Source: an uncultured Christensenellaceae bacterium (GTDB lineage Bacteria; Bacillota; Clostridia; Christensenellales; CAG-1252). Taken from it: 64,000 nt of DNA. A model generated the notes under the pieces. It had not been told where the DNA came from. It did no database searches and worked only from the letters and a program-made list of their open reading frames with translations. The DNA lies in assembly GCA_964391805.1 (NCBI GenBank), contig CAYMNK010000002.1:19671-83670 (forward strand). The letters run 5' to 3'. Position 1 is the first letter of the stretch. Every line of letters begins with the position of its first letter. Shown here piece after piece: positions 30,618 to 50,200 of this stretch. Both the position numbers and the translations under genes were made by a program.

Positions 30618-30750
30618 ATTCACTCCCCGCAAATTGAAAATGGATACAATTTGCATAGTAATATATTTTATTTTAACACGAGCAAGCAATTTTTGCAATA
30701 AAGAAGTAAAATAAATAATATATATTTATATTAAATATTTAATAAGATAT

Positions 30751-31282: not shown

Positions 31283-31288
31283 AAAATT

Positions 31289-31318
31289 ATTATACATTTT
31301 AAGGATATCTTTTGTCAA
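31289..31318 (-). promoter_or_regulatory. Consensus promoter TTGACA-18-TATAAT, 6 nt upstream of the pilin ATG
   Basis: Minus strand: TTGACA (31318-31313), 18-nt spacer, TATAAT (31294-31289), AATTTT, then ATG 31282. Confidence 0.65.
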
Positions 31319-31337
31319 CGTTGTTAAAAATAAATAT

Positions 31338-32039
31338 ATGAAACTTAATGAAACATTACTATCCATAGTATTTCTTATACTTATGTTAATAGGCGGTATT
31401 CCAAAAAATGCAATTACAACAGTCGAAACGGAACCGCTCGAATCAATTGATGAAAATACCGACACTTGTAACGATACTATTATAGATTATTATAGCGAAG
31501 ACATTAACAATAATACATTGTTCGAGATATTCGGAAACACAAAGATAATACCCGACGGGGAATTAAATATCAACCTATTATTGGAATCCACAGAAATAAT
31601 AAAAATCGAAGAATTCGCCCTTCCTTATAACAATCTTGGCTATGTGATACAAGAGATTATCTATCATAAGGCAAAAATCGATATTGACGGCAAAGTCACA
31701 AGTGTGGAAGTTCAAGGGACAAAAGAGAGAGCAAAACTAACTTTTACTCTGACAGTTGACCTTCACAAAAAGAACTTTCTAACTAAACTAATAGGAATAG
31801 ACGATTCCGAATTGACGGCGACAATAGAACTCGATACCGATTTAATAAATAAGTCGGTTAATTATACGATAACGGCAAACGAAATCAGCGTTTCGACATT
31901 AATAAGCAATATCGCATGTAAATATGTTTTCGGCGCAAACGATACCGAAGAATTAGTCAAGACGATTACAAATAAACTCTTTTGGGGAATAGGAACGGCA
32001 AGCGAGTTTGGGGATACGGAGATAATATATAATAAATGA
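31338..32039 (+). CDS. Secreted hypothetical protein (233 aa), divergent from the pilin gene
   Basis: Start set to ATG 31338 (MKLNETLLSIVFLILMLIGGIPKNAITT, signal-like). The upstream part of track ORF 31152.. overlaps the pilin gene antisense. No family recognised. Confidence 0.6.
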   Translation: MKLNETLLSIVFLILMLIGGIPKNAITTVETEPLESIDENTDTCNDTIIDYYSEDINNNTLFEIFGNTKIIPDGELNINLLLESTEIIKIEEFALPYNNLGYVIQEIIYHKAKIDIDGKVTSVEVQGTKERAKLTFTLTVDLHKKNFLTKLIGIDDSELTATIELDTDLINKSVNYTITANEISVSTLISNIACKYVFGANDTEELVKTITNKLFWGIGTASEFGDTEIIYNK

Positions 32040-32494: not shown

Positions 32495-34168
32495 TTACAC
32501 TAATGTAAATACGGTGCGAACGTATTCCTCTACCGAAGTATCGCCTTCTTTGATGCGTTTACGGAGGTTTTCATCCATAAACTCCATTCCGTGAGCGGAC
32601 GCATACGCACGAATTTCGTCTGTACTTGCGTTTTTGGTAATCATTTGTCTAAGCTCAGTATTAAGTTCAAGCACCTCGTGAACGGCAAAACGTCCGGAAT
32701 ATCCGGTATAGTTACAAGATGAACAGCCTACAGGGAAATATGCTTGATCGATATCGTTTGAATTAATGAGTTTTTTCTCGTCTAAACTGAGTTGTTTAAG
32801 TTTCTTACACTTAGGACACAGTTTCTTTACCAATCTTTGAGCTAATACGCCGTTAACCGCCGCGGCGGTAAGGTAAGGTGCGATTCCCATATCGATAAGA
32901 CGGGCGATTGTTGCACATGCGTCATTGGTGTGCAAGGTGGACAATACCAAGTGACCGGTAATAGCCGCTCTCATGGCAATTTCCGCAGTTTCGTAGTCAC
33001 GAATCTCACCGACCATTACTATATCGGGGTCTTGACGAAGTATAGATCTAAGAGCAGTTGCAAAGGTCATACCCGCTTTTTCGTTGATTTGAACTTGATT
33101 GATGCCCATAACGCGTTTTTCGACAGGGTCCTCTACTGTGGTGATATTATGGGTAGGTTTGTTGAGTTGACTTAAAACGGTGTATAGCGTGGTAGATTTA
33201 CCGCTTCCGGTAGGTCCTGTAACGAGTACTACTCCGTTGGGGGAATTACAAATATGATCGAACACTTTGAAGTTTTCTTCGGTCATACCGAGTTCTTTTA
33301 ATCCTATCTGCTTACCTAAGGAAGTACCGAGTAAACGCAAAACGGCTTTTTCACCGTATACGGTAGGCAATGTAGATACACGAATATCGATGGTCACGCC
33401 TTCGAAGGTATAGTCGAATCTACCATCTAACGGAATACGCTTTTCGGCAATATTCATATTGGACAATATCTTCAAACGAGTAATCAACGAACGATGGGTA
33501 GAAGGAGTAAGTCTCATATACTCTTGTAAATCACCGTCCAATCTCATTCTTATAATAACTACGTCCTTGAACGGCTCAATATGGATATCCGATGCTTTAC
33601 GCAAATACGCTTGTTGAACAAGGGTGTTCAGCAACTTAACTATAGGTGCACTGTCTACACGCGAATCTATATCGTTGGTTTGGTTAGAATCTTGCTCTTC
33701 GTCCTCTAATTCGACCGCAATATTTTGCGCGCTTATATTGGCATAATACTTTTCAATGGCATCCTCTATAGATTTCTTGGTGGCAAGGGTGTAAAAAACA
33801 TCTCTACCCGATGAAGCTTTTACATCGAGTTCAATCTCCATATTGGTAGGATCTCTCGTGATTATCTCGAGTCTACCGTCCTCTCTGATCTTATAAGGGA
33901 TAATGTTATGCTTCCTTGCTATCTTTTCGGGAACAAGCTTGATAACATCGCTATCCGATATAAAAATATTACCTTCTATAACTTGCAACCCCATTCTTTC
34001 GCCCAAGGCACTCAAAATATTGATTTCGGGAGTTACGTTCATAGAGATTAGCGTTTCGGATATAGACATACGTGGATTTTGTTCGTTCAATTCACGAGCC
34101 TGTTTGAGTTGTTCGGGAGTTACGAAACCCTTTTGAAGTAGTATTTGACCAAATTTTAGTTTACTCAT
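32495..34168 (-). CDS. pilB: Type IV pilus assembly ATPase PilB (GspE family)
   Basis: Walker A GPTGSGKSTT, Asp/His boxes, Walker B DPDIVMVGEIRD, tetracysteine CPKCKK...CSSCNYTGYSGR, and a GspE-N-type N-terminal domain. Confidence 0.95.
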   Translation of the reverse strand: MSKLKFGQILLQKGFVTPEQLKQARELNEQNPRMSISETLISMNVTPEINILSALGERMGLQVIEGNIFISDSDVIKLVPEKIARKHNIIPYKIREDGRLEIITRDPTNMEIELDVKASSGRDVFYTLATKKSIEDAIEKYYANISAQNIAVELEDEEQDSNQTNDIDSRVDSAPIVKLLNTLVQQAYLRKASDIHIEPFKDVVIIRMRLDGDLQEYMRLTPSTHRSLITRLKILSNMNIAEKRIPLDGRFDYTFEGVTIDIRVSTLPTVYGEKAVLRLLGTSLGKQIGLKELGMTEENFKVFDHICNSPNGVVLVTGPTGSGKSTTLYTVLSQLNKPTHNITTVEDPVEKRVMGINQVQINEKAGMTFATALRSILRQDPDIVMVGEIRDYETAEIAMRAAITGHLVLSTLHTNDACATIARLIDMGIAPYLTAAAVNGVLAQRLVKKLCPKCKKLKQLSLDEKKLINSNDIDQAYFPVGCSSCNYTGYSGRFAVHEVLELNTELRQMITKNASTDEIRAYASAHGMEFMDENLRKRIKEGDTSVEEYVRTVFTLV

Positions 34169-34264: not shown

Positions 34265-35020
34265 TTATATGGTAAATAGCAGACTTATTATTTCGTTTCC
34301 ACAAAATACCGCTATCATCCACCCTATACATAGACACGGACCTAATGGCATTACCTTGGTTTTGTTAGGTCTAACCATCATTATTATTCCTATAATGCCA
34401 GCTAATACTATTCCTAAGAAACCGCCTAATAATACCAATTTCCAACCTAACAACAAGCCTACTGCAAGTGATAGTTTGATATCGCCTAAACCTATTGCTC
34501 CGTGTGTTACAAGGGTAATTATAATTAGCGGAAGACTTAGAGCAACCATTCCTAAAAGATATTCATACCATTTGACGTCGCCCATGAAGAAAGATAAAAT
34601 AAATCTTATCAAGCCTAACACGATTATCAATAAAACGGTACCGTTAGGAATTTCCATTATATCGAGGTCGATCGAGGCAACCACTATAAGCACACTAAAT
34701 AGAATAGCGAATATTACTAAATCATATATCGCATTTTTAAATAATATATACGCAAGAAGCCATAAAATCGCGTTTAGTAATTCTACTATAGGATAGCGTG
34801 GCGATATTCTTTCTTTACAATATCTACATCTACCGCCTAAGAATATATAACTAAATAGCGGTATCATATCGTACCATGCCAATTTATTTTTGCATTCGGT
34901 GCAATATGAAGTTGCACTCTTAAAAAAGATTTTTCTCGGCACTCTATAGATAACCACATTTAGAAAACTACCTATAACTAAGCCGTATATGAATATCAAT
35001 GCTCCGTATAAGTACTCCAT
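34265..35020 (-). CDS. pilD: Prepilin peptidase / N-methyltransferase PilD (A24 family)
   Basis: N-terminal Cys motifs YCTECKNKL...CRYCKERISPRYP. Polytopic. Catalytic-Asp contexts ASIDLDIMEIP and AIGLGDIKL. Confidence 0.93.
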   Translation of the reverse strand: MEYLYGALIFIYGLVIGSFLNVVIYRVPRKIFFKSATSYCTECKNKLAWYDMIPLFSYIFLGGRCRYCKERISPRYPIVELLNAILWLLAYILFKNAIYDLVIFAILFSVLIVVASIDLDIMEIPNGTVLLIIVLGLIRFILSFFMGDVKWYEYLLGMVALSLPLIIITLVTHGAIGLGDIKLSLAVGLLLGWKLVLLGGFLGIVLAGIIGIIMMVRPNKTKVMPLGPCLCIGWMIAVFCGNEIISLLFTI

Positions 35021-35023
35021 TGT

Positions 35024-35704
35024 CTACACCTCGAAATATTGGGTAGCATAATAGAGAACGAAGGCATATTTTATATCGTCTGTTCTCGTAGGTACTTTAG
35101 CCTCTCCCGACTTCCCGGCGGATAAAACCTTGATTTCGGTGCCGTATATGCTCATATTATACAGTCTAACGGTAGAAGTATGGGTGTAATCCACTCCGTT
35201 TTTGGATACGGTGGTGGTAATTTTGACGATTCGCCAACACTTCTTTTGGGTGCTGTCGCTATAACTTACCCTCTCATTCACCCCTTCGAAGGTGTAATAC
35301 AACTCTTTTACTTCGGCTCCTCTATATGATTTTTCTGTCAAAAGAATGTTTTCTTCTACCACCTTTTTAGAAGTAGGATCGAAGGCATACTTATAAATAT
35401 AGCCGTCCGAAGATTTGCCCATACAGTATTGATATTCCTTTTTGATTACGCTATTCGGATCGATCGTCCGTTCGTATAAACTTAAATCACGCGATGCTAT
35501 AAGTTCGTTATTGAGTGCGACGTGCAACTTCTGAGAAACGTTATACAATACAGTTTGCATTTCGGTTCGATTATACATAGTAAGCGTTGAACCGAGTATA
35601 GAAGACAATGAAACAGATATTATTGCCAATATAAGGGTGGCAACAATCAATTCTACAAGGGTAAAGCCTCGTTTATTCCGTTTTAGTCTTCTAAGTTTCT
35701 TCAT
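35024..35704 (-). CDS. Type IV minor pilin (226 aa)
   Basis: MKKLRRLKRNKRG|FTLVELIVATLILAIISVSLSSILG has the prepilin motif with Glu+5. Its ATG abuts the stop of the upstream pilin gene (TAAATG). Confidence 0.85.
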   Translation of the reverse strand: MKKLRRLKRNKRGFTLVELIVATLILAIISVSLSSILGSTLTMYNRTEMQTVLYNVSQKLHVALNNELIASRDLSLYERTIDPNSVIKKEYQYCMGKSSDGYIYKYAFDPTSKKVVEENILLTEKSYRGAEVKELYYTFEGVNERVSYSDSTQKKCWRIVKITTTVSKNGVDYTHTSTVRLYNMSIYGTEIKVLSAGKSGEAKVPTRTDDIKYAFVLYYATQYFEV

Positions 35705-36097
35705 TTATTCCTCATCCTCGTTTTCGGAAATGTCGTAATACACTACCTTGATGTCTTTACCGTCGTTAATCACTATGCCTGCGCGAAAGTCGTGGTCCTT
35801 GGGTGTCAGTCGCGTAGAACCGTCATCGATATCAAATTCAACAGTTATAGGCAAACCGTCTATATAATAACTTTTACTGCTTTCGTCATCTATCGAATCT
35901 CTTTCGGTTGCAAGTATTCCCGCAGCATCGGCGGAAGCTTGATCCAATTTTTGCGATTTCGAAACAAAAGTAAAGCCTTGTTGAAATAGTACAAGCATAG
36001 ATGAACACATTATACCGATTATCGCAATCGCTACCACGCATTCCAATAGGGTGAAGCCCCTCTTATTTCGTTTTAGTTTTTTAAAAAAGTTTTTCAT
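35705..36097 (-). CDS. Type IV minor pilin (130 aa)
   Basis: MKNFFKKLKRNKRG|FTLLECVVAIAIIGIMCSSMLVLF. GAGGTGA SD. Confidence 0.85.
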   Translation of the reverse strand: MKNFFKKLKRNKRGFTLLECVVAIAIIGIMCSSMLVLFQQGFTFVSKSQKLDQASADAAGILATERDSIDDESSKSYYIDGLPITVEFDIDDGSTRLTPKDHDFRAGIVINDGKDIKVVYYDISENEDEE

Positions 36098-36105
36098 AGT
36101 TCACC

Positions 36106-39100
36106 TCAATTAATCGCTATTCCTCTATAATACCAGTTCATACTCGAAACAGGTATGTCGTCGGGGGAGTCCCAAAATTCGGCAAGTTTATAACTTGAGC
36201 GATTGTCGCCTATCGAAGAAGTCGTTTCACCGCTCCTCAAATTGGTATATTTGAAAACGGTGTCGGACATGTCGGGTACCGTCTTTATGTAATTAATCTT
36301 ACTTGACAGTGAGTTATCCATTTCGAAATTGTCGCATACATACATTCCGTAAATATCCCAATGGTTGTTGCCCTCGCCGTTGTAATTGGCGGTCACCTTG
36401 AATACATTTCTCGCATCGGGATCTCCGTACGAATACCCGGAAGGCATATACACATACGCGGCGGTTTGGAAGTCCTGAACCTCGAAACTGATATTACCGC
36501 CCGTACCGACTATAAATAACCTCGGTTGAAGTTGGTATTGACCGCTACTCTTGGCTTTTTCGTCCATAACGGGATTACCGGACTCATCATAATAGGTTTT
36601 TTCGTCAAATCCGCTACCTGTAGTTTGAACATATCTCACACCGCCGAAAACATTGTAGGTTGCATCGGATTGTGTCCATTGAGAAATCCAATTATTATAA
36701 TCGCCGTATTCGTCATGAAGCCAGTTTGTAAAACCGTTACCCACAATCTTGATATCGGTATCCTCTTGTAAATACAAGAAAACTCTACCATTACCTATGA
36801 TATTCAAGCAACTGTCCTTATCCTGTTCCCATATCATCTTAGCACTCTTGGGCAATACGATATGTAGATCCTTTGCCTTGCTTCCGTACGGATCGGTGGG
36901 ATCTTCGCAGGTGAAGAAGGTCCAAGTAACATCATTAGACACCGATAGATTTGCTGTCCAGTTACCTCCGCCGTTACCCCAGAACCAACGACCTTGAGAG
37001 TCTTTTTCCTTAGTCATGTTGTCCGCTTTACGATATGTTTCGTCGAATACCGATTCACTTACCACTCCGCTATTGAAGAATACTAAGCCGACAGGACGCT
37101 GATTAAGCGAATAAGAGGTAGGAATAACCCAATTTTCGTTCCAACCTACGTATCTGATAAGATTATCGAGCATATCTCCGCTCGGGAAAGAACTATTGAC
37201 CACAAACGTTCGTCTTGTGATAATCATCATATCACTGCTACCGAGGTCAGATAAAACGGTTGAAACGTTGGAGGCACTTAACCTATAATACTCGGCATCT
37301 GATTTACTGGCAAACTCTAAACCCAAATAGTCGGACGAAGGTGTATAGAGCGAGGATAAATTGCTGAAGAAGTTTTGAGCGTTGCTATACAAACTCTTAC
37401 CTACACTCAATGCTTCTCCGTTCACCCAGTCCCAGAAATCTAAATCGTTGAATCGCTTAATATCCTCCGCACATGCTTCCAACGAGTCGATCGAACCGCC
37501 GAGTTTCTTTTCAGTAACGGTCAATACGTTATCGGCGTTATTATTCAAAGCTACGGCATCGCCTGCCGTTGTTTCGGTCGGCAATACCCACTTCAATGGG
37601 ATTGCTTGAGGATACCAATTATCGGTATTTAAACTTTTGAGAGGTAAATCCTCTTTATTTACTAATAGCTCATCCAACTGTGTTACTTTGTTAACGGTAT
37701 TGATTGCAATCGAGGTCAAGGGTGTTTTACGCTTGATGTCCATAGAAGACAAACTGTCCCACTCCAATCCGCCAAAGCCTACATTGGTTCCCGTTAGAAT
37801 CGGTAAATAGGTAAATCCACTTGATTCAATCGGATCGATTTTTACTAAAGCGTCTGCAAGTGATGATGAATTGCTAAGTCCGACCGAACAACTATCTACC
37901 TGAGTCGTAGAGCCATAAATCAGGTTGTTTACGTTATGATTACATAACGTATAATTCTTATCTCTTTCGCTCTTATCGATAACGCCCGACTTAGTATTGT
38001 GTCCTGCATTATCCTTATACTCGAAGCTTTGATAACTTGCAGTCTTACTCATAGAATAACCGTCGATTGATGCCTGTAAGGAGCAATAACCGTTATTTGT
38101 GTATCCCTTAGCTTGTAAAATACCGCCACAAGTATAAGTTGAACTCATATTAACCCAGTCATCCGTCCAACCCCAACCTTTGGTATCTCGCCAAGTTATT
38201 GTTTCTTGAATATTTAATTCAATTTTACCGTTATTGGTAAGCGTGCCTTTGCAATATATATTCAAACGAACAGTTGAAGACGATCCTATTGTCATATTTC
38301 CGCTTACGTATACGCCCTTAAACCAAGTATGAGCATGCTCTCTCGCGGTGGTAAATTCACTTCCGATGTAACTATCACCGCTTAAGGTCAATGCGTTAGC
38401 TACGTTTACGACGGTATAAGCGGTCAATTCGACATTAGACGTCGATATCGCACTCTCAATCGCTGTATTATACAATTCCAAACTACCGCCGAAATTATAG
38501 TACTTGGCATAGTTTCTAAATACCGTACTGTTAGTAGCGGTATATGACGAAAAATCAAAACTTTCGCCTAACTTAGAATTCGATATATATGCATTCTGAC
38601 TGGACCATAGCGTTATGTTAGAATAACACTCGACATTATCGAAATACAAGCCATAATTCGAACTTTCGTCTTTTTTGAGTCCTACATAGACCGAACCGAA
38701 TTTTGTACTGTATGCACTGTTTTGGGTATTATAGGTACCCTCTTGGGTGGAATAACAATGCTTAATAGTGCTTTTGTACCCCGATCCATAAAAGGTTGTA
38801 TATGTCGCATATACCCCTCTATCGGCATATAATGTCGAGCCGTTATATTTTTCATCCGCACCATTGAATATACAATTTCTCAAGAATGCTCGTCCGCCCA
38901 TTGAATTCGAAGATGCAACATAAACATTTGAAGAAAAATGTATATTTTTATTCGTATCATCAGTATATCCCTTGATACTAACGGGATTGTTTATAATGGT
39001 CGATTCGGTAATATCTGCACCTGTAGATAACACAACGTTACAAACAAGCAAAGACGCTTTTACATAACCGTAAAAATCGATATTCGACCGTGTTAATGCT

Positions 39101-42100
39101 ATAATAGCACCCTTTGACCAAACATTGCCACTGAATTCTATGGATAAATCGGATTCTATACGCATCGAACCGACTTCGACATCGCCGTCAATCGAACCTT
39201 GTACATTAACTGTACCGTTAGGCACATATACATAGCCCGAAACGACACTCAAAGTCAACTCTCCAACATAGTCGGGTAAATCGATATTTCCTTTAACAGA
39301 AGCAAATGTTGCATTCGAACTTGACAACGGTGTGGTTGTATTTTTGGCAAAAATGCCACCTTCGGCAGTCGGTTCTACACTCGGCGCATACACTAATGTA
39401 CCGCTACAATTAACATTTCCCGATATCTTGACCGAAGTTAAAATATTTGCTTTAAACACGGTCAATTTGTCGGTCTTGGCGTATACATTGCCTATATTTA
39501 GTCCGCTTATTGCACTATCGGTCCCCTCTTCGATAAAAACAGATACATAGAGCGCAACAACGGCACTTTCTTGCATTTTCAACTCGGATAATCTAACATA
39601 TTTAGCGTTTGTTTCGAGATTTTCTTCTCCCGTAGACGACGCTAATACCTTACCCGATAAAATACCGCCCGAAACCGTTACTGCAACGTTTTTACCGTCG
39701 ATTATGTTATCGATATAAGTAGGACTCCAGTTTGATGCGGACCTCAAAGTTTTAGTGGTCATTATTAATCCGCCGTCTATTTTGCAATCGATAAGGTCAT
39801 CCGCATAATCACAATACACTGTTCCGTATATTTCGCCGTTTAACATAGTAAATTTACCGCCGACATATACATTGCCCTCGTATTGTACCGAACCCGAAGT
39901 GTTATCGGTTGTATTTGTTCCGCCTACATAAGAGCGAACCATATCAAGATTTGCACTACCTACATCGAGACAGCCTTTGTATTCGGTACTGCTATTTGAC
40001 GGATAAACGGTGTGAGTCGTACCGCTGACGATACTGTCGGTAAATACCACCGTGCCCGATACATTCTTAAATTTCACCCATCCGCCGAAAGTGCTGTCGG
40101 TAACGGTTATTTTGTTCTTTACAAACTGATTGATTTGAATATCGCCCGATATCTCGAATTTGGTTATCACCGAAGACGAATCGAAATCAAAACTATCAAC
40201 CAAGTTGTCGAGTACTATCTTCATCTCTTCGGTATTGTTGACGTTAACCGTACTTCCGTCATAATCGGTAATTACTTTGTTTACCTTTAACGACTTACAT
40301 TTGAGTGTAACGCCCTTTCTAACAATCAATGTTCCCGATATAGTCAAGTCACCTAACGGTTTATCGGGCGTATCGTATACATAAACTATTACGTTTTCGT
40401 TGGTGAAAGTTGCACCTTCGGAATCGATTAGTCCGTCCGAACCGATAAATACGTAATCGTTATCTTCAAAGGTCGTGCCTTTGATATAAGGCTTTCCTGC
40501 CGAGCCCGAAATTTCCTCGAGCATCACGATTTGACCGTTTTTGACGTAGAGATCGTACACCCAACCGTTGAGAATAGCATTACCGCCGTTAACGTATATT
40601 TTATTACCGTTATTATTGACGGTAGTCAACCTCGGTGCATACGGATTTTGCCCGTCTCCTACGACCGCGGTATGAGAATCGACTACGATATCGCCGTTAA
40701 CATATATCGCTTTATCTAAATCGTTGCCCGATAATACGGCATTCGATTTTATACGCAATTTACCCTTAACGGAGGAACCTACCACCAATTCGCCCTCGAC
40801 AGTTCCGTCTATATATGCAACCGCTCCGTAACCCGATTCGACTACATCTTGAACAGTGCCCGATACATGGACGAATCCACCTGCGGAAGCGTGTAAAACA
40901 CTACCCGAATGCAATGAAAACATAGCGGAAGTTACTATTTGTCCGTAAAGATCGGAATTATTGACGGCAACGAAACAACCGTTGGTACCGCCCGCATTGA
41001 CCGAACATTGTTCGCCTATGGTGATACCCGAAATGACAATTTGCTCGCTGTCTATGCCTTTGGTAATACTACCGTTGTGAATAAAAATTTGTCTGACGTT
41101 ATTCGCCGAGCCTGCTTTTTGGGTATAAAGCGTACCTATAGTCGCACCGTTTAAATTAATAAAGTTATCTTGCAAATTGCTTAAATCAAAATCGTTTCCC
41201 TCGTTGTCTTTCTCTACTTGAAGAAGATTTTGTACACCGTCGCCCAAAACTACGTTCGAATAGGTTGTCAGCACTCCGCTTATATTGGATTTGGCTTCTT
41301 CGGTCGATTGGTTATTTTTACCGAAAAGCGGAATGCACTTTTTACCCGACGATAACAAAACATCACCGTTTATGGTAAGCGCCGACAAGTAACATACCGA
41401 ATAACTAACAGAATTGACAGTCGCATCGAGCGAACCTTTGATATTTAAATTACCGTTAATTACGGTTGCATTATTGGATGCAGAATAATTGATAGCGCCA
41501 TCTAACTCAACATTACCGTTAATAATTATGTTACCCTTATTACTGACATTATAAAAAGTTGCATTTTTACCTGCATGCAGTACCCATCCTGTGGACGGAG
41601 TTCCAATTTTTATTGTGCCTGTACTCTCGTTTTTGATTATTACATTACCTTTAGTTTCGATTTTACCTTTTACAAAAGTGTCTATAGAAGTTCTATTGGT
41701 GATATTAACGTTTCCGTCTGCATATATGTTTTCTTTGACGCTCGAATCGTATAGGGTTACGCTACCACCTGTCGAAATAGAAGTACATTCCACATTGTCG
41801 AGAATGATATTGCACCCAGTACCTCCGATAATTCTATCTACGGTACAATTTTTGATAGTTACATCACCTAAAGCGTAAATAGTACCGCCTACAAGTTTGG
41901 TACCTATATTGGAGATAGAACCGTTTATCGTAACGGTACCTCTTGAATATATATCTCCCGAAACCGATGCCGTTGACTCTATAGTCAAAGCATTACGGAT
42001 GTATATATCGTTCACGTTAACTCGACTAAGCGTCATACTTCCGTATGATGTAACGGAACCTAAAATGCTCCTTGTTTCCGCGCTCGAACTCGTAATGCCT

Positions 42101-42954
42101 ACGTCACCGGTACTGGTCAAATTGGCTTTTATATCGGTGGTAAGTGTATATGTATCGCTCGAACTCGAGCCATAGCCTTCACTTTCGTTATCGATGCCGT
42201 TATATAAATATACATTGGGTTGATAACTGTCCTCAATATTCCCTTCAGGGGCAAAATCGAAGGTCATTTCGGACGGATATGTAGAATAAATATTATACAC
42301 GCTAAATAGGTCGTGCATGGTATCCGAAAAGTCTTCGTCATCCAAGTAGGTGAATACCGTGGTAACAACCTCGGTAGCACCGTGATAACTTACCGTAACA
42401 TCAAGATACAAATAACGCTTATTGATATTCTTTTCGGAATGATTTTTCCCCTTACATAGATCGGATTGACAATATTCGGTATCGTTACCGTTTTTATCAA
42501 CCAAATCTTCGAGAGTGGTACCGCAATAGACACACTCGCTCTTAAAATAAAACTTCAAGTCGGCTACAAGATTAACTTCGGCTAAATCGTCGGCCGAAAG
42601 CCCTGTACCTCGTATTGCCTTCTCTATTTCTGCTTTTTTATTCTCGTCGTTGGGATCAAACGTTACGCTTGCCGTTCCCTTGACGGTTTTAGCGTATTTG
42701 GTATTTTTCTCGAGGTATGATACGATATTGTTGGCATCTACCTCTTCGGTGAGTTCCATTGCGAACGCCTTGCCTATCGCCTTGGCAAACATGAAACTCT
42801 GTGTCTTGTTCGCCGATACGGCGGTAGACTTATACATATTGACGGAAATCAAACTAAAAGACACCACGATGACCGAAAGTACCATTAAAAAGATCATCGT
42901 GTATGTCAGGGCTGCACCCTTCTTATTTTTTACAAATAAGTTTTTGATTCTCAT
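36106..42954 (-). CDS. Giant (2,282 aa) pilin-like protein: PilX/GspK-type prepilin-like N-terminus fused to a Cys4 head, ~1,300 aa of beta-helix-like repeats and a large C-terminal region
   Basis: ATG 42954 (the track start at 42957 is TTG) with AGGAG 6 nt upstream. N-terminus MRIKNLFVKNKKG|AALTYTMIFLMVLSVIVVSFSLISV (basic leader, Gly, ~25 hydrophobic residues, no Glu+5). CVYC-x17-CQSDLC. Long runs such as GDVTIKNCTVDRIIGGTGCNIILDNVECTSISTGGSVTLYDSSVKENIYADGNVNITN. Sits between pilO-like and the minor pilins. Confidence 0.75.
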   Translation of the reverse strand: MRIKNLFVKNKKGAALTYTMIFLMVLSVIVVSFSLISVNMYKSTAVSANKTQSFMFAKAIGKAFAMELTEEVDANNIVSYLEKNTKYAKTVKGTASVTFDPNDENKKAEIEKAIRGTGLSADDLAEVNLVADLKFYFKSECVYCGTTLEDLVDKNGNDTEYCQSDLCKGKNHSEKNINKRYLYLDVTVSYHGATEVVTTVFTYLDDEDFSDTMHDLFSVYNIYSTYPSEMTFDFAPEGNIEDSYQPNVYLYNGIDNESEGYGSSSSDTYTLTTDIKANLTSTGDVGITSSSAETRSILGSVTSYGSMTLSRVNVNDIYIRNALTIESTASVSGDIYSRGTVTINGSISNIGTKLVGGTIYALGDVTIKNCTVDRIIGGTGCNIILDNVECTSISTGGSVTLYDSSVKENIYADGNVNITNRTSIDTFVKGKIETKGNVIIKNESTGTIKIGTPSTGWVLHAGKNATFYNVSNKGNIIINGNVELDGAINYSASNNATVINGNLNIKGSLDATVNSVSYSVCYLSALTINGDVLLSSGKKCIPLFGKNNQSTEEAKSNISGVLTTYSNVVLGDGVQNLLQVEKDNEGNDFDLSNLQDNFINLNGATIGTLYTQKAGSANNVRQIFIHNGSITKGIDSEQIVISGITIGEQCSVNAGGTNGCFVAVNNSDLYGQIVTSAMFSLHSGSVLHASAGGFVHVSGTVQDVVESGYGAVAYIDGTVEGELVVGSSVKGKLRIKSNAVLSGNDLDKAIYVNGDIVVDSHTAVVGDGQNPYAPRLTTVNNNGNKIYVNGGNAILNGWVYDLYVKNGQIVMLEEISGSAGKPYIKGTTFEDNDYVFIGSDGLIDSEGATFTNENVIVYVYDTPDKPLGDLTISGTLIVRKGVTLKCKSLKVNKVITDYDGSTVNVNNTEEMKIVLDNLVDSFDFDSSSVITKFEISGDIQINQFVKNKITVTDSTFGGWVKFKNVSGTVVFTDSIVSGTTHTVYPSNSSTEYKGCLDVGSANLDMVRSYVGGTNTTDNTSGSVQYEGNVYVGGKFTMLNGEIYGTVYCDYADDLIDCKIDGGLIMTTKTLRSASNWSPTYIDNIIDGKNVAVTVSGGILSGKVLASSTGEENLETNAKYVRLSELKMQESAVVALYVSVFIEEGTDSAISGLNIGNVYAKTDKLTVFKANILTSVKISGNVNCSGTLVYAPSVEPTAEGGIFAKNTTTPLSSSNATFASVKGNIDLPDYVGELTLSVVSGYVYVPNGTVNVQGSIDGDVEVGSMRIESDLSIEFSGNVWSKGAIIALTRSNIDFYGYVKASLLVCNVVLSTGADITESTIINNPVSIKGYTDDTNKNIHFSSNVYVASSNSMGGRAFLRNCIFNGADEKYNGSTLYADRGVYATYTTFYGSGYKSTIKHCYSTQEGTYNTQNSAYSTKFGSVYVGLKKDESSNYGLYFDNVECYSNITLWSSQNAYISNSKLGESFDFSSYTATNSTVFRNYAKYYNFGGSLELYNTAIESAISTSNVELTAYTVVNVANALTLSGDSYIGSEFTTAREHAHTWFKGVYVSGNMTIGSSSTVRLNIYCKGTLTNNGKIELNIQETITWRDTKGWGWTDDWVNMSSTYTCGGILQAKGYTNNGYCSLQASIDGYSMSKTASYQSFEYKDNAGHNTKSGVIDKSERDKNYTLCNHNVNNLIYGSTTQVDSCSVGLSNSSSLADALVKIDPIESSGFTYLPILTGTNVGFGGLEWDSLSSMDIKRKTPLTSIAINTVNKVTQLDELLVNKEDLPLKSLNTDNWYPQAIPLKWVLPTETTAGDAVALNNNADNVLTVTEKKLGGSIDSLEACAEDIKRFNDLDFWDWVNGEALSVGKSLYSNAQNFFSNLSSLYTPSSDYLGLEFASKSDAEYYRLSASNVSTVLSDLGSSDMMIITRRTFVVNSSFPSGDMLDNLIRYVGWNENWVIPTSYSLNQRPVGLVFFNSGVVSESVFDETYRKADNMTKEKDSQGRWFWGNGGGNWTANLSVSNDVTWTFFTCEDPTDPYGSKAKDLHIVLPKSAKMIWEQDKDSCLNIIGNGRVFLYLQEDTDIKIVGNGFTNWLHDEYGDYNNWISQWTQSDATYNVFGGVRYVQTTGSGFDEKTYYDESGNPVMDEKAKSSGQYQLQPRLFIVGTGGNISFEVQDFQTAAYVYMPSGYSYGDPDARNVFKVTANYNGEGNNHWDIYGMYVCDNFEMDNSLSSKINYIKTVPDMSDTVFKYTNLRSGETTSSIGDNRSSYKLAEFWDSPDDIPVSSMNWYYRGIAIN

Positions 42955-43004
42955 CAATTTCTCCTGCTTAATTATGGTTTATCTATCCAATAGCAACACT
43001 TTAA

Positions 43005-43868
43005 CTAACCTATTGTAGTCCCGTCAAGAACTAATTCGCAATCGGGACATTTGACGATACCGTCGCCCTCGATGGTTGCTTCTTCACTTTTTGTCAAGAA
43101 CCAATCCTTGGTGTAGGCATAACCGCATTCGTGACACTCGCATATCTCACTCGCGTATTTAGAATAATCGGTCGAAGCCGGTGTGTATACCACAATAGTA
43201 ACGCTTATAGTGGTTTTAGCGTCTTCGCCGATTGCCTTATTGTAATCGAATTCGGATACGTAACAAGAACCGCGTCTAATGGCTTGTGATGCTAATACAA
43301 GCATCGAGGCTAAATCATTGATGCTGTCGTTGTTGTTGCAAAAATCGAGTTCGAAATTAAAATCGATATCGGTAGAAAGTATCGCATCCACATCGGCAAT
43401 GTATTTGTTAACGTCGTAACTCGTTTCGCCTTCCGTCAATATGTCGTCGGGAGTTACTACTTGAGCGGTTACGTTGAGAGAATCGAAGTATGCTGTTTCG
43501 CCTACCACAAATCCCTTATATTTCATGGTATAAATCCAATTTTTAGCGGTATCGAAGGAATCTTGCCTACATACCGAATTGGATTGATGCGCTAAATCGT
43601 GTTTTTGCTCTAAAAGTTTATTTTCCAAGTATTTTTTAGCCATTGCACCGTTTTCCGCATATGCTCCGTTTATACCGCTAACTATTAGGTCCGCATACAA
43701 CTTTTGATTCTCGATCTTTTGGGCGTCTATCTCCGCCTTTGTTTCCGATCTCGTGGTCAACAATGCATAAATACCATAATTCGGTATCATTATTGCTGCA
43801 AATACTACCAATATTATTGCCAATACAAGCAATAACGCTTTATCTCTTGCTGTTAAGGTGGTTTCCAT
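43005..43868 (-). CDS. pilO: PilO-position bitopic protein (287 aa) with C-terminal Cys-rich zinc-ribbon-like motif
   Basis: Start set to ATG 43868 (METTLTARDKALLLVLAIILVVFAAIMI) with AAGGAGGAG upstream. One N-terminal TM and a coiled-coil-like segment. C-terminus CECHECGY-x23-KCPDCEL. Assigned by operon position only. Confidence 0.5.
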   Translation of the reverse strand: METTLTARDKALLLVLAIILVVFAAIMIPNYGIYALLTTRSETKAEIDAQKIENQKLYADLIVSGINGAYAENGAMAKKYLENKLLEQKHDLAHQSNSVCRQDSFDTAKNWIYTMKYKGFVVGETAYFDSLNVTAQVVTPDDILTEGETSYDVNKYIADVDAILSTDIDFNFELDFCNNNDSINDLASMLVLASQAIRRGSCYVSEFDYNKAIGEDAKTTISVTIVVYTPASTDYSKYASEICECHECGYAYTKDWFLTKSEEATIEGDGIVKCPDCELVLDGTTIG

Positions 43869-43878
43869 ATGCTCCTCC

Positions 43879-45027
43879 TTATTTGTTAGCGAATAGGTCT
43901 TCAACCTTTTCGCTCATAATGTCGACGGCATAATTGTCGATATTAAACTTCAAATCCGCAGACTGCTCGGATGCACCGTCTATAAAATCAAATACAAGAT
44001 CTTTACCGGCGCTGAAAAATTCGCTGTCATCGATTGCATGTACAATATCTTCTAATCCGAATGCCTCAGTTTGAGTTGCGCTGATTTTAAAGGATATCGT
44101 TCTTTCTGATGGATTGATCGATAATGAACCTAACGAGTAACTATAATCTATACCGGTTTGATCGTATTCGCTCTCGATTGCCAATGCAATGCGCTCGTCC
44201 ATTATATCGAATAATCTTTCTATACAGGACTTACGGGTAATGCTGATAACGGAGTACTGTTCGTCCCCTATTTCCACGGTCATACCGTAACCCTCGGTAA
44301 GTATGTCTCTTCCTGTCGACGAATCGGCTACCAGTCTAAAGAAGGGATCCGCACCCAATGTATCGGGAGCGGTGAGATTAGTGATAAGGTCGGAATAACT
44401 TCCGTTTCCTTTGACGACCGCTATAAATTGACCTCTAAAATAAGAGTACCATATGCCGTCTTCCCCTTGCTCGGGCAAATCTTCGAACAATTCCGAATAG
44501 TCTATCATTCCCGATACAGCGGTGTATAAATATTTATAACTTTCGGCTAAAATCGCAGCGTCATCACTACTCGAATCGATATTATAAGGGGCTAACATAA
44601 CCTTAAGTTTTAATTCATCGGCAATTTCCGATAAATCGAATTTGGTGGAAAAGCCTTGCTCGTTAATAAATTGCTTAACTATCCCTATCTCGCTTGTCGA
44701 TAACGGTGAGAAAATATCGGAATGTATTTCGCTATAATACTCTATAAAACTCAAGGAAGCCTTGGTATTTTTAACGGTATTATATTCCTTTAACAAAGAC
44801 TGAGTAATGCGTTTAGTAAATTCATAAGCATCCTTTTGTGCAATAAGAGTATCGAGTTCCTTTTTCTGTTGCGCATTGGTATAGGAAAATACCGATATCA
44901 ATACGATACATACCAATAGAACCAAGCCCAAAACATATAACAGTTTTTTGGTAAGCGGAATTTTTTTTGCCTTAGACACCGCTCCGCCCGCAGCTTTAAA
45001 TAAGTTAATGTCCTTCTTGTAAGCCAT
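43879..45027 (-). CDS. pilN: PilN-like bitopic pilus alignment protein (382 aa, unusually long)
   Basis: N-terminal KKDINLFKA (compare the PilN INLLP motif) followed by TM LLYVLGLVLLVCIVLISVF. AAGGAG SD. Directly after pilM. Confidence 0.6.
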   Translation of the reverse strand: MAYKKDINLFKAAGGAVSKAKKIPLTKKLLYVLGLVLLVCIVLISVFSYTNAQQKKELDTLIAQKDAYEFTKRITQSLLKEYNTVKNTKASLSFIEYYSEIHSDIFSPLSTSEIGIVKQFINEQGFSTKFDLSEIADELKLKVMLAPYNIDSSSDDAAILAESYKYLYTAVSGMIDYSELFEDLPEQGEDGIWYSYFRGQFIAVVKGNGSYSDLITNLTAPDTLGADPFFRLVADSSTGRDILTEGYGMTVEIGDEQYSVISITRKSCIERLFDIMDERIALAIESEYDQTGIDYSYSLGSLSINPSERTISFKISATQTEAFGLEDIVHAIDDSEFFSAGKDLVFDFIDGASEQSADLKFNIDNYAVDIMSEKVEDLFANK

Positions 45028-45030
45028 ATT

Positions 45031-45951
45031 CTATCTCCTTACAAACGTGCCTAAAGCACAAGTGAATGCATTATAGTCCAACAGTTCCAATCCCTTGACG
45101 AAGGACGGCAAAGGAAGGTGGGATATCATTAGATTGACCGAATCGGCTAATGACTGCATTATTTGGTCTAATACCAAGGCATTACCGGTTACGAATACCG
45201 CCTCGATGCTCTTCTCGGGATTTCTCGATTGATAATAACGAATAGTACTATTCAACTGTGTGGATAACTCGCTCGCAAGATAACCCAAATCGAGATTATC
45301 GGGATCGGTAACATAGAGAACCGAACTCTTGGTGAATTGCTGAACGAATTCGTCAAAAATATAAACGGAAATAAACGTGTCCTTATAATCGAGTAGCACG
45401 AAGGTCTTAGTCAAAAGTTTACGATCGTTAGCATTGGAATTATATAACGATATAAGTTTACTCATTGCGTTAGGTCCGATATCCAATGAAACGGGTGTCA
45501 ATCCTAATTCAACCGCCGATACCGACAAATTATCGATAATTTCGTTGTTGATATATGTAACCATTACGCGCAGTTTGGACACCTTCTTATCATCCTTAAA
45601 TTTGTCTATCACTATATAGTCAATGGTGCTATTTTGTCCTTTGGAATCGGCGAACAACTCGGACTGAATTACCTTCTTGAGTTTTTGGTCGGGGACGTCG
45701 GGTACTATCATTTCACGGAATACTATACGGCTGTTATCCAATACGTAGCACGCTTTACCCGGTTTCATATTGGTTGCTTGCATACAGTCTTGTAGTGCCT
45801 GTGTGAACACGACGGTATCCTTGATAGAACCGCTTTCGAGCGAACCTGCTTTGGTGTTTATATCATAAAACCTTTGCACCGATATTTTATTACCGCGAGC
45901 ATCACCCTCGATAAGTTTGATTTTTTCGTCGCTAATGTATACGCAAATCAT
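45031..45951 (-). CDS. pilM: PilM-like actin-fold pilus assembly protein
   Basis: 306 aa and cytoplasmic. Lies between pilC and pilN-like, with a VLDIGPN-like phosphate-binding segment (SLDIGPNAMS) and AAGGAG SD. Sequence-level support is modest. Confidence 0.6.
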   Translation of the reverse strand: MICVYISDEKIKLIEGDARGNKISVQRFYDINTKAGSLESGSIKDTVVFTQALQDCMQATNMKPGKACYVLDNSRIVFREMIVPDVPDQKLKKVIQSELFADSKGQNSTIDYIVIDKFKDDKKVSKLRVMVTYINNEIIDNLSVSAVELGLTPVSLDIGPNAMSKLISLYNSNANDRKLLTKTFVLLDYKDTFISVYIFDEFVQQFTKSSVLYVTDPDNLDLGYLASELSTQLNSTIRYYQSRNPEKSIEAVFVTGNALVLDQIMQSLADSVNLMISHLPLPSFVKGLELLDYNAFTCALGTFVRR

Positions 45952-45962
45952 TTTCTTGCTCC

Positions 45963-47138
45963 TTATTCGATATTGAAGTTAAACATCGGTTGTACCACCG
46001 CTAATAACAGCATTCCTATAACTACCGCCATTACTACCATCATCAACGGATTGATAAGTGCGGTCAAACCCTTGATAGCCGAATCGGCTTCCTCGTCGAA
46101 ATAGTTGGCAACTCTATTGAGTACGTCTCCCAATACGCCCGACTCTTCGCCGACGAATAACATGCTCGTCAACAAAGGATCGAAACAGTCTACCGAAGAT
46201 ATCGCTTTACTCATCGTTTCGCCCTTTTTGATAAGGAAAACCGCTTCTTCCATTTGTTGGGATATGTAACTGTTTCCGACCGTCGCCGTTGCCATAGATA
46301 TGGCGTCTACTATCGATATACCGCCCTCATAAAGGGTTGCAAGCGTTCTCGCAAAAGTTGCAGTATATGTCTTGCGAACGAGTTTACCGATTTTTGGCAA
46401 CTTGATTTTAAGTCGGTCGAGCTCATACCTTATCTTGGGGATATTCTTGATAATCGGCAAGGTGAAATACAATATCACTATCACAAGCACCAAGATATAC
46501 CAGTAATTCAATATGAAGTTGGCTATATTTAGCAACAGTTGAGTCATAGCAGGAATCTCGGTCATACCGCTAACCATCTTAGGCAATACGAAAACGGCAA
46601 GCACAATGAATACTACAGCAGTAATCAAACCGAGTATTTTTGGGTAATTCATGGCACTCTTGACTTGATTCTTGAGTTTCATTTCCTTCTCGAACTGCTC
46701 GGACAGCTTACTGAGCGACTTATCGAGATCACCCGTTTGTTCACCTGCTTTGATCATATTGTACATGATGCTCGGAAACGCTCTACCTTGTTTGGATATT
46801 GCATCGGATAAAGAATTACCCTTTTGGACTAACTCCAACAGGTTCCCCGTAACATCCCGAAGATTGCCTTTTTCCATCTTGGAATACAGCATATCGAGGG
46901 CGTTCGCCAACGCTACACCTGCATGGATTATAGATGATAACTGCGAACAAAAATTGATAAGCTGTTTTAACGGCAACGGCTTATTACCCGAGGTTTGATC
47001 CTTTAGTCGGGTGTACGACAAACAGTAGTTACCGTTTTTGGTAACCAACTGTTTGATTTCCTCATCGCTTTGAGCAATCATCGTTCCCTTGATTGTCTTA
47101 CCCTCGGGGGTTAGTGCAACATACGAATATTTTTGCAT
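45963..47138 (-). CDS. pilC: Type IV pilus platform protein PilC (GspF family)
   Basis: Two GspF-type repeats (..FCSQLSSIIHAGVALANALDML.. and ..FARTLATLYEGGISIVDAISMA..) and three TM segments. Start set to ATG 47138 (MQKYSYVALTPEGK) with AAGGAG upstream. Confidence 0.92.
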   Translation of the reverse strand: MQKYSYVALTPEGKTIKGTMIAQSDEEIKQLVTKNGNYCLSYTRLKDQTSGNKPLPLKQLINFCSQLSSIIHAGVALANALDMLYSKMEKGNLRDVTGNLLELVQKGNSLSDAISKQGRAFPSIMYNMIKAGEQTGDLDKSLSKLSEQFEKEMKLKNQVKSAMNYPKILGLITAVVFIVLAVFVLPKMVSGMTEIPAMTQLLLNIANFILNYWYILVLVIVILYFTLPIIKNIPKIRYELDRLKIKLPKIGKLVRKTYTATFARTLATLYEGGISIVDAISMATATVGNSYISQQMEEAVFLIKKGETMSKAISSVDCFDPLLTSMLFVGEESGVLGDVLNRVANYFDEEADSAIKGLTALINPLMMVVMAVVIGMLLLAVVQPMFNFNIE

Positions 47139-47174
47139 TATAATCTCCTTGCGAGAATATCGCCTCAATAATTA

Positions 47175-47250: not shown

Positions 47251-50200
47251 TTAACCGACTTGTTCTACCGTGTATCCCGTAAATGCATCCGCTTCATAGG
47301 TCAGACGATTGCCGTCTACGGCATATAACGGTAATAGTATCTTTTCACCGTTATGACGGTTGTTATGATTCTCACATACGCTTGCCAACTGCTTGATTAC
47401 ATAGTTTTCTATAGAGAAGTGCGACCAATTCCAGTGAGGAATCAAAACTCCGCCTTCGTAACCACTCAACACGTTACTCATATCGGTTTCGTCGGTAGAA
47501 TAAGCTATCGGATAGTAAATCTTAGCACCGCTTGCGAAGACATTAGAGGATAGCTCTAAATTCTTATTCATAGAAATAAACTGCACCTCGCTAACGGTTG
47601 CGAATGATTGAGTGCGAATGGACGAGTAAACAGCAGAAACAATCAAGAAAGATATGCTTGTACCCTTGAATGCATTTTCGGATACAGTCAAATTTTTACC
47701 TCTAAGCGATAAAGACTTCAATCCGATACAGTTTTCAAAAGCACTTACGCCTATGTAACTAAGTGACGAAGCGGAACTAAAATCAACTGCATTATAGCCC
47801 GTGCAACTTCCTCTCAATTCGCATTCGTAGCGATGTAAACAGTTTGCACCGCCTTCGCAATCGACTAATCCCGTACATCCGGCAAAGGCATAATCGCCTA
47901 TGCTTTCGACATACGAACCAATCGTCACGTACTCGAGAGAGGTTACGTTATAAAATGCGTAAGACTCTATACCGATACAGTTAAAATCGGTTAGATATAG
48001 CGCATTGATAGTACTGTTCATAAACGCTCTCGTACCGATAATAACATATCCTTTGCCCTTTCCTAAGGTTTGATAATAGCCGTCAGATGTCTTATAAACA
48101 CCAATGGAAGATTGCTCGGAAACACTTATTTCGTTGCAGTACGATAAAATGTCGGCAGGATATGCGATTAATTTAGTTACATTATTATCTTGATTGACGA
48201 ACAATGCTCCGTTAAGCACAAAATACTTAGCGTTTGCCGAATCGACTTTAATATTTTTCAACTTCGGCGTATTCTCGATAGCGCCGAGCACGAAATCACC
48301 GTTTTCGAGTGTAATCGGAGCGGAAAAGTCTGTTAAGTCCTTACCTAATGAAAGTTTGGCTATCGATGTACCCGAGAATACGCCTGCTCCTATCTCGCAA
48401 ATACTTAACAACGTCACGTTATTCAAAGTAACGACATTGTCATATATGGCGGTATGTTTCAACGATTTATCGAAGGGAATATCCGTTTGAATGCTTCCCG
48501 ATAATACGCTGAGTCCGCGTGCGTAGGCGTATGCGCCGATATACTCTACATTGCTTGCTACAAATCCTATCTTAGTATTGGCAAAAGCGTAATCGCCCAC
48601 CGTCTTAATAGAATAGGACACAAAATCATTTCCGCTCACCGAGCTCAAATCGGTAGCATAGAAGGCGCCCTCTCCTACTTCACCAAGTCCACCGCTTATT
48701 TGGAAGTTTGAATTTGACGATCCTAAAAGGGTATTCTTTGCAAATGCATAACTATCAATTATCGCTCCGTCTGCAAATACTATATCGATATTTTGTAGTA
48801 CGCCGTCGTTGACTTTCAAAACTTCCTTGCCGTTCTCACCGCCGAATTCAACGTTTGCAAAGGCGTATGCGCCTATTCTCTTGACCGAACCGAGTTTAAG
48901 TGAGGTCAAAGCAACACCGGAGAAAGCATAATCGTCAATATAGTCTAAATCAATAGACGGAATACTTACGCTTGTTATCGAAGTACCTACAAATGCATAT
49001 TTGCCTATATATTCGAGGTTACTTTGATTTCTCGAACCGAATACAACATTAGTAAGTGAGGTCATTCCGTATAAAGCATTATCCTCGATATACCTTAACT
49101 GCGAATTGAACTCTATGGTTTTGATTTTGCTCGATACCTTAGTTGAAAATTCTTCGCCTACACCTATAACGGTTTGTCCGTCTATTTCATCGGGGAAGTA
49201 AACAGCCTCGGAACAATATTGACAGTTTTCATAGTCGTGAGAAGCACTCTTTTTCATTCCGACAATTTCGATACCGTTTTCAGTTACAACAAACTCGAAA
49301 CAGGTACTCGGAGTATAAAGGAATAGATTTTGCTCTTCTTCGGGATGCTCGACAATGTATTCGCTATCCTTGTAGCCTAATGCCTCGAGATATGCGATAA
49401 CCTTGGTTGCGTTGTATGGTACTTTTACCGTAATGTTATCGTGAAGCACAAATAATGGCGTTTCAGAGGTGTCGGGAAGCGACAAGACGTCGTCTTGGAA
49501 ATGCACGTACAACAACGAGTTACAGTTATCGAATGCGCCCTCGCCTATGGATTCGACGGAAGAAGGAATGCTGATTTCGGTTATTCCGTCACAATCGGCA
49601 AAGGCAAATGCTCCAATATTCTTAATCGAACCCGTAAATACTACTTCGCTTATATTCGAGTCTCTAAACGCTTCGCTTCCTATGGAAATCAATGCGTCAG
49701 AGGTAGGAATTGAACGGAGTGCTGTATTTTTGAAAGCACCGTTTGCAATTTCCGTTACGGTATTAGGAAGTTTAACGCTTACTAACGAATTACACGATGC
49801 AAAAACGTTCTCGGGAATAACCTCAATGTGCGTTTCGGATAAATCTACCGAAACGAGATTATAACAACCTTCGAATACGCCTATCGGTAAACTCGTTATC
49901 GTATCGAGAAGTTCTATTGTTTCGATTGCCGAGTTACCGCTGAATGCATCCTTGGATATCGAAGAAACTTGCTTACCCTCAAGATAGTATGGTATTACTA
50001 TTTGCCTTGAATTGAGCACATCGCTTAGTCCGATTATCTCGATTTTTCCGTTCTTTTCTCTATAAACCAAGTCACTTTTGACGGATACCTCTTTATATCC
50101 TATAGCAAAGTTGTTTAAGTTATCGATTAGTTGTGCACCTTGTGGCAAGTATACAAACGCTCCGTCTACAAAAACTCTCTTGTCGGAGTCGGTTGAGTAT

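Follow-up and report, generated by a model that had tools for sequence, protein, structure and literature searches.

In the current picture, the tips of type IV pili (T4P) carry small complexes of minor pilins, sometimes with one grafted domain or with a separate PilY1-type adhesin. Known members of the GspK/PilX/PilK class, which is represented in the GspK-I-J complex of the T2SS (type II secretion system) and in PilU-V-K of C. difficile, are roughly 200–550 residues long; they lack the glutamate at position +5 of the mature protein (Glu5), are the largest pilin of their cluster, have genes next to those of small, Glu5-bearing minor pilins, and have been proposed as caps and primers of the filament. 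For C. difficile, PilU-PilV-PilK has been proposed as a tip complex (PMC9556784). The competence pilus of Thermus thermophilus has ComZ, a GspK-like tip pilin with a beta-solenoid of ~380 residues and ~6 nm (PMC6561018), for which a tip-only location was argued on steric grounds. Modular pilins consist of a pilin module and a functional module grafted to it, which the filament displays, probably at its tip, as with PilB (vWA) and PilC (lectin) of S. sanguinis (PMC8179133, PMC9934059). Here we analyse a gene encoding a much larger pilin-like protein of 2,282 residues (the giant protein), located in the pil operon of an uncultured Christensenellaceae bacterium of gut or rumen, on a 64,000-nucleotide (nt) stretch of contig CAYMNK010000002.1 (positions 19,671 to 83,670, assembly GCA_964391805.1) that we refer to as the window.

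We consider it rather likely that the giant protein is a Glu5-less, tip-capping minor pilin of the GspK/PilX class, with an ectodomain grown into a fibre. This was also the original prediction, made from the letters of the window, and it is now supported by a conserved genomic slot and an in-register profile match to prepilins, while remaining unproven. By sequence, the protein is probably also the largest pilus-tip subunit yet seen. In a published census covering over 1,200 modular pilins, the most extreme case has 860 residues (PMC8179133), in line with the earlier statement that described modular pilins carry modules of a few hundred residues, and our literature searches for giant or large pilins yielded incidental mentions only, none described at this size.

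In the direction of transcription, Pfam matches order the operon as pilC, pilM, pilN-like, pilO-like, the giant gene, two minor pilins, pilD, pilB, and pilA (Table 1), confirming the position first read for the giant gene, after the pilM/N/O-like genes and before two minor pilins and pilD. The gene occupies the same slot, with the pilO-like gene on one side and the two minor pilins on the other, in all 17 distinct loci that were read (L001–L018, of which L008 duplicates L002), the identity of the neighbouring genes across these loci spanning ~24–97%. Homologues lying mostly outside pil loci had been named as a finding that would count against a pilin, and the opposite was observed. In each of these loci the giant gene stands beside small Glu5-bearing minor pilins within a machinery operon, as is characteristic of PilX_N/GspK-type proteins.

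The giant protein begins with MRIKNLFVKNKKG/AALTYTMIFLMVLSVIVVSF (a slash marks the putative cleavage site here and below), exactly the short basic leader, Gly, and hydrophobic stretch without Glu+5 that had been described. Gly13 is followed by 28 uncharged residues in MRIKNLFVKNKKG/AALTYTMIFLMVLSVIVVSFSLISVNMY, with Tyr at +5 instead of Glu. Across the family, all 30 full-length N-termini carry basic leaders of 10–18 residues that end in N-x-K-G; Gly-1 is invariant (30/30), and Asn-4 and Lys-2 are each conserved in at least 90%. Positions +1 to +3 are (A/V/I/F)(A/V/I)(L/M), succeeded by ~25 hydrophobic residues and, after the hydrophobic segment, by a conserved Q..F..AKS.G stretch. Nearly all members have Tyr or Phe at +5 and thus lack the Glu+5 expected of type IV pilins; the N-terminus is still compatible with a pilin, because the GspK/PilX tip class typically has no Glu5. 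Canonical prepilins of the same loci (n = 44) likewise have leaders ending in ..N-K-[KR]-G/FTLVE. Alignment of the giant N-terminal profile to these 44 co-encoded prepilins with hhalign gave a probability of 95.6% (E = 1e-8, 56 columns) in exact register, with Gly-1 on Gly-1 and Tyr+5 of the giant on Glu+5 of the prepilins. Among the controls, 2.7% was reached by the PilN-like and 7.6% by the PilO-like anchors of these operons, and 20 column-shuffled prepilin alignments reached ≤0.8% each, indicating that the similarity is specific to prepilins and not a matter of generic hydrophobicity. In addition, PilX_N (PF14341) ranked first for residues 1–71 among 24,736 Pfam families (E = 0.008), and it too matched in register (residues 12–32 on profile positions 1–21).

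A number of observations weigh against a tip pilin. The profile check of the N-terminus gave a divided answer: PilX_N ranks first and in register, but its 16.6 bits stay below the gathering cutoff of 25.5 and no more than 6 of 30 family members are matched at E ≤ 1 (best 0.0017), while N_methyl (PF07963) and TIGR02532 have no match at E ≤ 0.1. No curated pilin model in Pfam or NCBIfam reaches threshold on the giant protein; with N_methyl, the canonical pilins of the window operon (n = 3) score 33–37 bits. An AlphaFold2 model of residues 1–315, built on a 13-sequence alignment, places a ~60-residue helix (11–71) ahead of four strands, a pilin-like order predicted with low confidence (predicted local distance difference test, pLDDT, 60; predicted template modelling score, pTM, 0.47). 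A Foldseek search of this weak model against the PDB returned no pilin and nothing below E = 0.03, and the full-length and N-terminal profiles, searched against PDB sequences, yielded transmembrane-helix noise only. The giant and the co-encoded pilins were also compared for Gly/Ala covariation at −1, and none was found: a canonical minor pilin of locus L004 has Ala where its giant keeps Gly. Moreover, a 248-kDa tip that ends in a globular module of 500 residues has to get through the cell wall in some way, cleavage by PilD and location at the tip are what we infer from sequence, and a ligand-binding role has no direct support, with no recognisable binding or catalytic domain found in the end module by Pfam or Foldseek. 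Finally, an uncleaved N-terminal signal anchor would give an identical hydropathy profile.

Such an anchor is central to the alternative that survives best, which we nonetheless think unlikely. The giant protein would then be a membrane-anchored surface fibre of type II topology, its beta-helix rod projecting from the cell surface, and would be co-expressed with the pilus or belong to the assembly platform while staying outside the filament. The single N-terminal hydrophobic segment of 28 residues, the curated pilin hidden Markov models (HMMs) scoring below threshold, and the low-confidence head model without a PDB match all fit this explanation, and other giant surface proteins flanking the operon suggest a general adhesion island. 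A plain anchor, however, would not need the invariant Gly and the N-x-K-G leader, which are kept at below 30% identity, and the family profile fits prepilins in register but not the PilN-like and PilO-like anchors. Neither does the place beside the minor pilins ever vary, and a ~30 nm rod fixed in the membrane would spend part of its reach crossing the wall.

A second alternative, which we regard as clearly improbable, invokes a short T2SS-like pseudopilus: a piston primed by the giant protein would push the fibre through the wall without long pili being made, and the T4P machinery would be a dedicated launcher for the giant and possibly for the neighbouring giant proteins too. In line with this, a scan of all larger open reading frames (ORFs) in the window (the remainder being <230 residues) detected no second T2SSE/PilT ATPase, as the original prediction had noted for a pilT-like retraction ATPase; the minor pilins have weak NCBIfam matches resembling T2SS pseudopilins, which do not establish them as GspI/GspJ equivalents; and a giant gene of the BspA leucine-rich-repeat (LRR) type is conserved directly upstream of pilC. 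The absence of pilT from 64 kb, however, is silent on the rest of the genome, and there are many T4P that form long filaments despite being non-retractile. Also conserved is a separate pilA, which has a promoter region of its own, and alignment proteins of the PilM/N/O type are typical of T4P.

If the giant protein is a tip-capping minor pilin, it would be inserted through a class III signal peptide and cleaved after Gly13 by PilD, which is encoded three genes downstream. The mature alpha1 helix and the two Glu5-bearing minor pilins would form a priming complex on PilC/PilMNO, with the giant on top because it lacks Glu5, and PilB would polymerise the major pilin beneath, pushing the giant outward as the pilus tip. 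The bactofilin-like beta-helix stalk of ~1,350 residues would hold the C-terminal module of ~500 residues tens of nm away from the filament, where this module would do the terminal job, most likely binding a ligand. More tentatively, and with somewhat less confidence than in the tip assignment itself, we propose that T4P of gut and rumen Christensenellaceae may be tipped by a single pilin of 250–350 kDa, a rigid beta-helical lance of 25–50 nm with an undescribed end module. Such a lance pilin would exceed every modular pilin of the published census in size by a factor of three to four.

The domain organisation is compatible with this scheme. The giant protein has one membrane-grade hydrophobic segment only, at the N-terminus (KD19 maximum 2.74 at residue 20), and a search for an LPXTG or sortase motif was negative, which makes the N-terminus its sole anchor. 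As a whole, it has no match above threshold in Pfam or NCBIfam. The head domain carries the invariant motifs DLFSVYNIYST.P and P.VYLYNG. The four Cys that had been noted in the head are present (C141, C144, C162, and C167) and form a lineage-specific insert, missing from the P0017–19 clade. Identity to relatives that share ~37% overall amounts to ~57% in alpha1, 42% in the head, 25–28% in the stalk, 6–15% in the linker, and 60–66% in the C-terminal core; the stalk is thus the least conserved region apart from the linker. By analogy, these conserved ends on either side of a variable stalk and linker resemble anchor-stalk-tip adhesins.

The stalk had been read as quasi-periodic beta-helix repeats. 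The beta-helix part of that reading is borne out by the Bactofilin HMM (PF04519), which matches the stalk of 14 of 17 family members at E ≤ 0.05 (best 1.1e-8), with the window protein itself below the gathering cutoff (17.9 against 27.9 bits). Strict periodicity, in contrast, was dropped, since autocorrelation is weak (≤0.23, at lags 6, 18, and 21). At the start of the stalk, residues 267–314 form short-strand coils that are the best-modelled part of the N-terminal prediction (pLDDT 67–81). Extrapolating from bactofilin geometry (~18 residues and 0.48 nm per turn), the rod of the window protein would measure roughly 25–35 nm. Total length varies from 1,322 to 3,170 residues across the family, which is attributed mainly to the stalk. 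The HMM matches imply the same right-handed beta-helix repeat as in bactofilins; these are small cytoplasmic polymer-formers, whereas the giant would be a single extracytoplasmic chain. On sequence grounds, the stalk therefore appears to share the bactofilin repeat fold without the giant being a member of the bactofilin family, from which it differs in architecture and location.

The C-terminal module is conserved. Family-wide invariants include D2029-x-H2031, D2045, G-x-G-R-V-F-x-Y, Y-M-P-x-G, and D2208, with the window module carrying GNGRVFLYL and YVYMP.G at the corresponding motifs. AlphaFold2 models the module confidently from a 27-sequence alignment (pLDDT 79.8, pTM 0.82); a Foldseek search of this model against the PDB and BFVD gave no match below E = 0.5, its top rows being tapirin and two-partner secretion (TPS) beta-helices, all insignificant. 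It therefore represents a C-terminal domain family that models confidently without a detectable fold relative in the libraries searched. The window module does not match DUF7305 (PF23981, cutoff 27 bits); the distant member P0056 does so above the cutoff (30.3 bits, E = 4.6e-7) and P0055 reaches 16.3 bits, suggesting a link to the window module that is distant and transitive only. A literature search on DUF7305 found nothing.

The distribution of the family is narrow. A whole-protein search of 5.8 billion proteins returned only 19 clusters, all of 1,993–2,337 residues and colinear over the full length. An HMMER search without filters, run with the C-terminal profile on 1.84 billion representatives, gave 32 proteins, showing that the module is nearly confined to giant pilin-like proteins; nearly all full-length ones have 1,322–3,170 residues. 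Word-indexed searches with the N-terminal and DUF7305-like profiles added fragments only. Altogether the family comprises ~30 clusters, all from metagenome-assembled genomes (MAGs) of Christensenellaceae/Clostridia, and a scan of GTDB species representatives located it in uncultured MAGs of these groups from rumen, caecum, and gut, including one MAG contig 87% identical to the window. A protein identical to that of the window is present in a public protein collection (P0001). At NCBI, relatives are currently named 'hypothetical protein' or, in the case of the fragment P0025, 'polymer-forming cytoskeletal protein', which is a misnomer.

Two loci depart from the single fused gene. In L006 (L006:4950-12001) the giant gene is split in two. 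The first gene encodes a 1,677-residue protein with an NNKG/AVL leader and the stalk, ending where the linker of the window protein starts. The second, located before the minor pilins, encodes a 666-residue protein (P0050) that combines an ordinary signal peptide of the Sec type with the C-terminal module and a new domain of ~250 residues; its identity to P0055, a fused relative, is 35% (E = 4e-61). As this separate protein has acquired a signal peptide of its own and a further domain, we regard the split as a genuine fission and not a frameshift; the separate short form of the module was found in three independent clusters. The existence of a split form implies that the C-terminal module is an autonomous extracellular unit, which must dock non-covalently where it is encoded separately. 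In L003 (L003:10001-28714), two giant paralogues of 2,973 and 2,958 residues lie in tandem, both with an NKKG/VAL pilin-type leader, and may be alternative tips. We find it plausible, if somewhat short of probable, that the family displays both fusion and fission of the end module, as PilX-PilY1-like proteins in both states, along with tandem duplication of alternative tips.

The third alternative, an assembly or annotation artefact in which a small pilin gene was joined to an unrelated beta-helix protein as a chimeric or read-through ORF, finds some footing in the two genes of L006 and is practically negligible, as that split is a genuine fission, full-length colinear homologues of 1,322–3,170 residues come from more than 30 independent clusters and different assemblies (making unlikely the chimera that had been named as a refuting outcome), the G+C content of the gene equals that of its flanks, and the ATG has a good ribosome-binding site. 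The reading frame is uninterrupted over 36106..42957 on the minus strand, with a TTG at 42957 directly preceding the ATG at 42954.

Among described systems, ComZ appears to be the closest analogue, combining a Glu5-less GspK-like pilin module and a beta-solenoid with an adjacent minor pilin as partner (PDB 6QVI family). The ComZ solenoid, however, sits inside the pilin beta-sheet, whereas the ~1,350-residue solenoid of the giant comes after the head and is followed by a further 500-residue end module; homology was rejected, as no sequence or fold match was found. From the GspK/PilX/PilK class, the giant differs in its sub-threshold PilX_N match and its low-confidence head model, and its family is far outside the size range of that class. 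Judging from its sequence, the giant would work like a tip modular pilin; it differs from those in the census, whose modules are recognisable InterPro domains, in adding at least 2,000 residues of stalk and uncharacterised module and in lacking a detectable canonical IPR012902/N_methyl motif. PilY1/PilC of Gram-negative type IVa pili are large Sec-secreted non-pilins that ride on a minor-pilin tip complex, and P0050 of L006 follows a similar logic, whereas the window module is covalently fused to the pilin; this fused form can be compared to a PilX-PilY1 fusion. Homology to PilY1 was not upheld, with no beta-propeller domain detected in the giant, no Pfam match on any of 27 C-terminal modules, and no fold match. 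Tapirins of Caldicellulosiruptor are beta-helix surface proteins and cellulose adhesins linked to a Firmicutes T4P locus; they have Sec signal peptides and no pilin N-terminus. The tapirin C-domain (PDB 4WA0, 6N2B) was among the top Foldseek rows at insignificant values (E 0.66–2.9; template modelling score 0.08–0.12), and homology was rejected here as well. With scores below the family thresholds of PilX_N, N_methyl, Bactofilin, PilY1, and tapirin, the giant is best placed in a family of its own.

If the tip assignment holds, an ectodomain fibre of 2,000–3,000 residues would raise the known upper limit for T4P priming and passage through the envelope, and would show that fibrillar adhesins can be anchored by a pilin. 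The coexistence of fused and split forms is a natural experiment in the relationship between pilins and non-pilin tip proteins of the PilY1 kind. With this locus, Christensenellaceae also gain a concrete candidate for an adhesion apparatus; this gut family is heritable and associated with health, and its molecular characterisation is very poor. The locus could serve cell-cell or cell-fibre attachment in this lineage, for example in floc formation with methanogens, which has been reported for Christensenella (PMC7002349).

Table 1. Features of the giant pilin-like gene, its operon, and the flanking genes, in positions of the window; bits refer to profile matches.
Feature	Position	Strand	Remarks
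Giant pilin-like gene	36106..42954	minus	ATG 42954, stop 36106; 2,282 residues, 248 kDa, isoelectric point 4.7
Ribosome-binding site AGGAG	42961..42965	minus	6 nt upstream of the giant-gene ATG
Leader, residues 1-13	42916..42954	minus	basic MRIKNLFVKNKKG, ends in invariant Gly; putative PilD cleavage after Gly13
Predicted alpha1 helix, residues 14-71	42742..42915	minus	28 uncharged residues, Tyr+5, then conserved Q52/A57/G61
Head domain, residues 72-270	42145..42741	minus	strands 90-98, 128-141, 175-190, 193-202 (low-confidence model)
Cys4 insert, residues 141-167	42454..42534	minus	C-x2-C-x17-C-x4-C, zinc-ribbon-like
Variable stalk, residues 271-1620	38095..42144	minus	rich in G/S/T/N/V, bactofilin-like beta-helix
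Linker, residues 1621-1775	37630..38094	minus	poorly conserved; fission point of the split variant at its start
C-terminal module, residues 1776-2282	36109..37629	minus	~500 residues, conserved; core 1951-2282
PilC platform protein	45963..47168	minus	T2SSF 185.9 bits
PilM	45031..45951	minus	PilM_2 27.4 bits; TIGR01175 47 bits
PilN-position bitopic protein	43879..45027	minus	382 residues; no Pfam match
PilO-position bitopic protein	43005..43904	minus	299 residues; no Pfam match
Minor pilin 1	35705..36097	minus	130 residues, KRNKRG/FTLLEC; N_methyl 34.1 bits; TIGR02532
Minor pilin 2	35024..35704	minus	226 residues, KRNKRG/FTLVEL; N_methyl 33.4 bits
PilD prepilin peptidase	34265..35020	minus	A24_N_bact 114 bits, Peptidase_A24 51 bits
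PilB assembly ATPase	32495..34168	minus	T2SSE 433.6 bits, MshEN
Putative major pilin pilA	30779..31285	minus	168 residues, SNRRG/FTLVEL; N_methyl 36.7 bits
Signal-peptide ORF	31335..32039	plus	234 residues; divergent from pilA
BspA-type LRR giant gene	47251..64000	minus	directly upstream of pilC; many LRR_5 copies
Surface protein downstream of pilA	23943..30698	minus	2,251 residues; signal peptide, MBG_2 domain
Endonuclease_1 protein	4686..6905	minus	739 residues; Big_2 and Big_3 Ig-like domains

Within the operon, the ORFs at the PilN and PilO positions have no Pfam or NCBIfam match at E ≤ 0.001. Their position and bitopic topology are kept in the 13 loci that cover the region with a detectable match (L005 and L006 are covered without a tblastn match, L018 is without a pilO match, and L013, L014, and L016 are out of reach). 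The PilO-position protein ends in a Cys-rich tail (CECHECG...CPDC). Several canonical pilins encoded by the minor-pilin/pilA genes of L004, L014, and L016 have Ala at −1 (..NKRA/FTL, ..NKKA/FTL, ..NKLA/FTL), which is unusual for substrates of a prepilin peptidase.

Further giant surface proteins are encoded around the operon. The frame of the BspA-LRR gene is still open at the end of the window, so that its product exceeds 5,580 residues; equivalents of 8,742–10,122 residues are encoded in L001, L002, L003, and L005, with synteny to the pil operon kept. The 2,251-residue surface protein has a C-terminal transmembrane segment with a basic tail, and a homologue occupies the same place in L001, L002, L012, and L015. 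The divergent pair of pilA and the 234-residue signal-peptide ORF (30779-32039) lies, as one unit, in the reverse orientation to that in L001, L002, L012, L015, and L018, and L005, L007, and L014 match the orientation in the window. A phase-variable invertible segment was rejected, as convincing flanking inverted repeats were lacking and orientation follows lineage; the inversion looks like a lineage-specific, evolutionary event rather than a switch. Further along the window, the 739-residue Endonuclease_1 protein is probably a nuclease that is secreted or located at the surface, and it has no relation to the pil operon.

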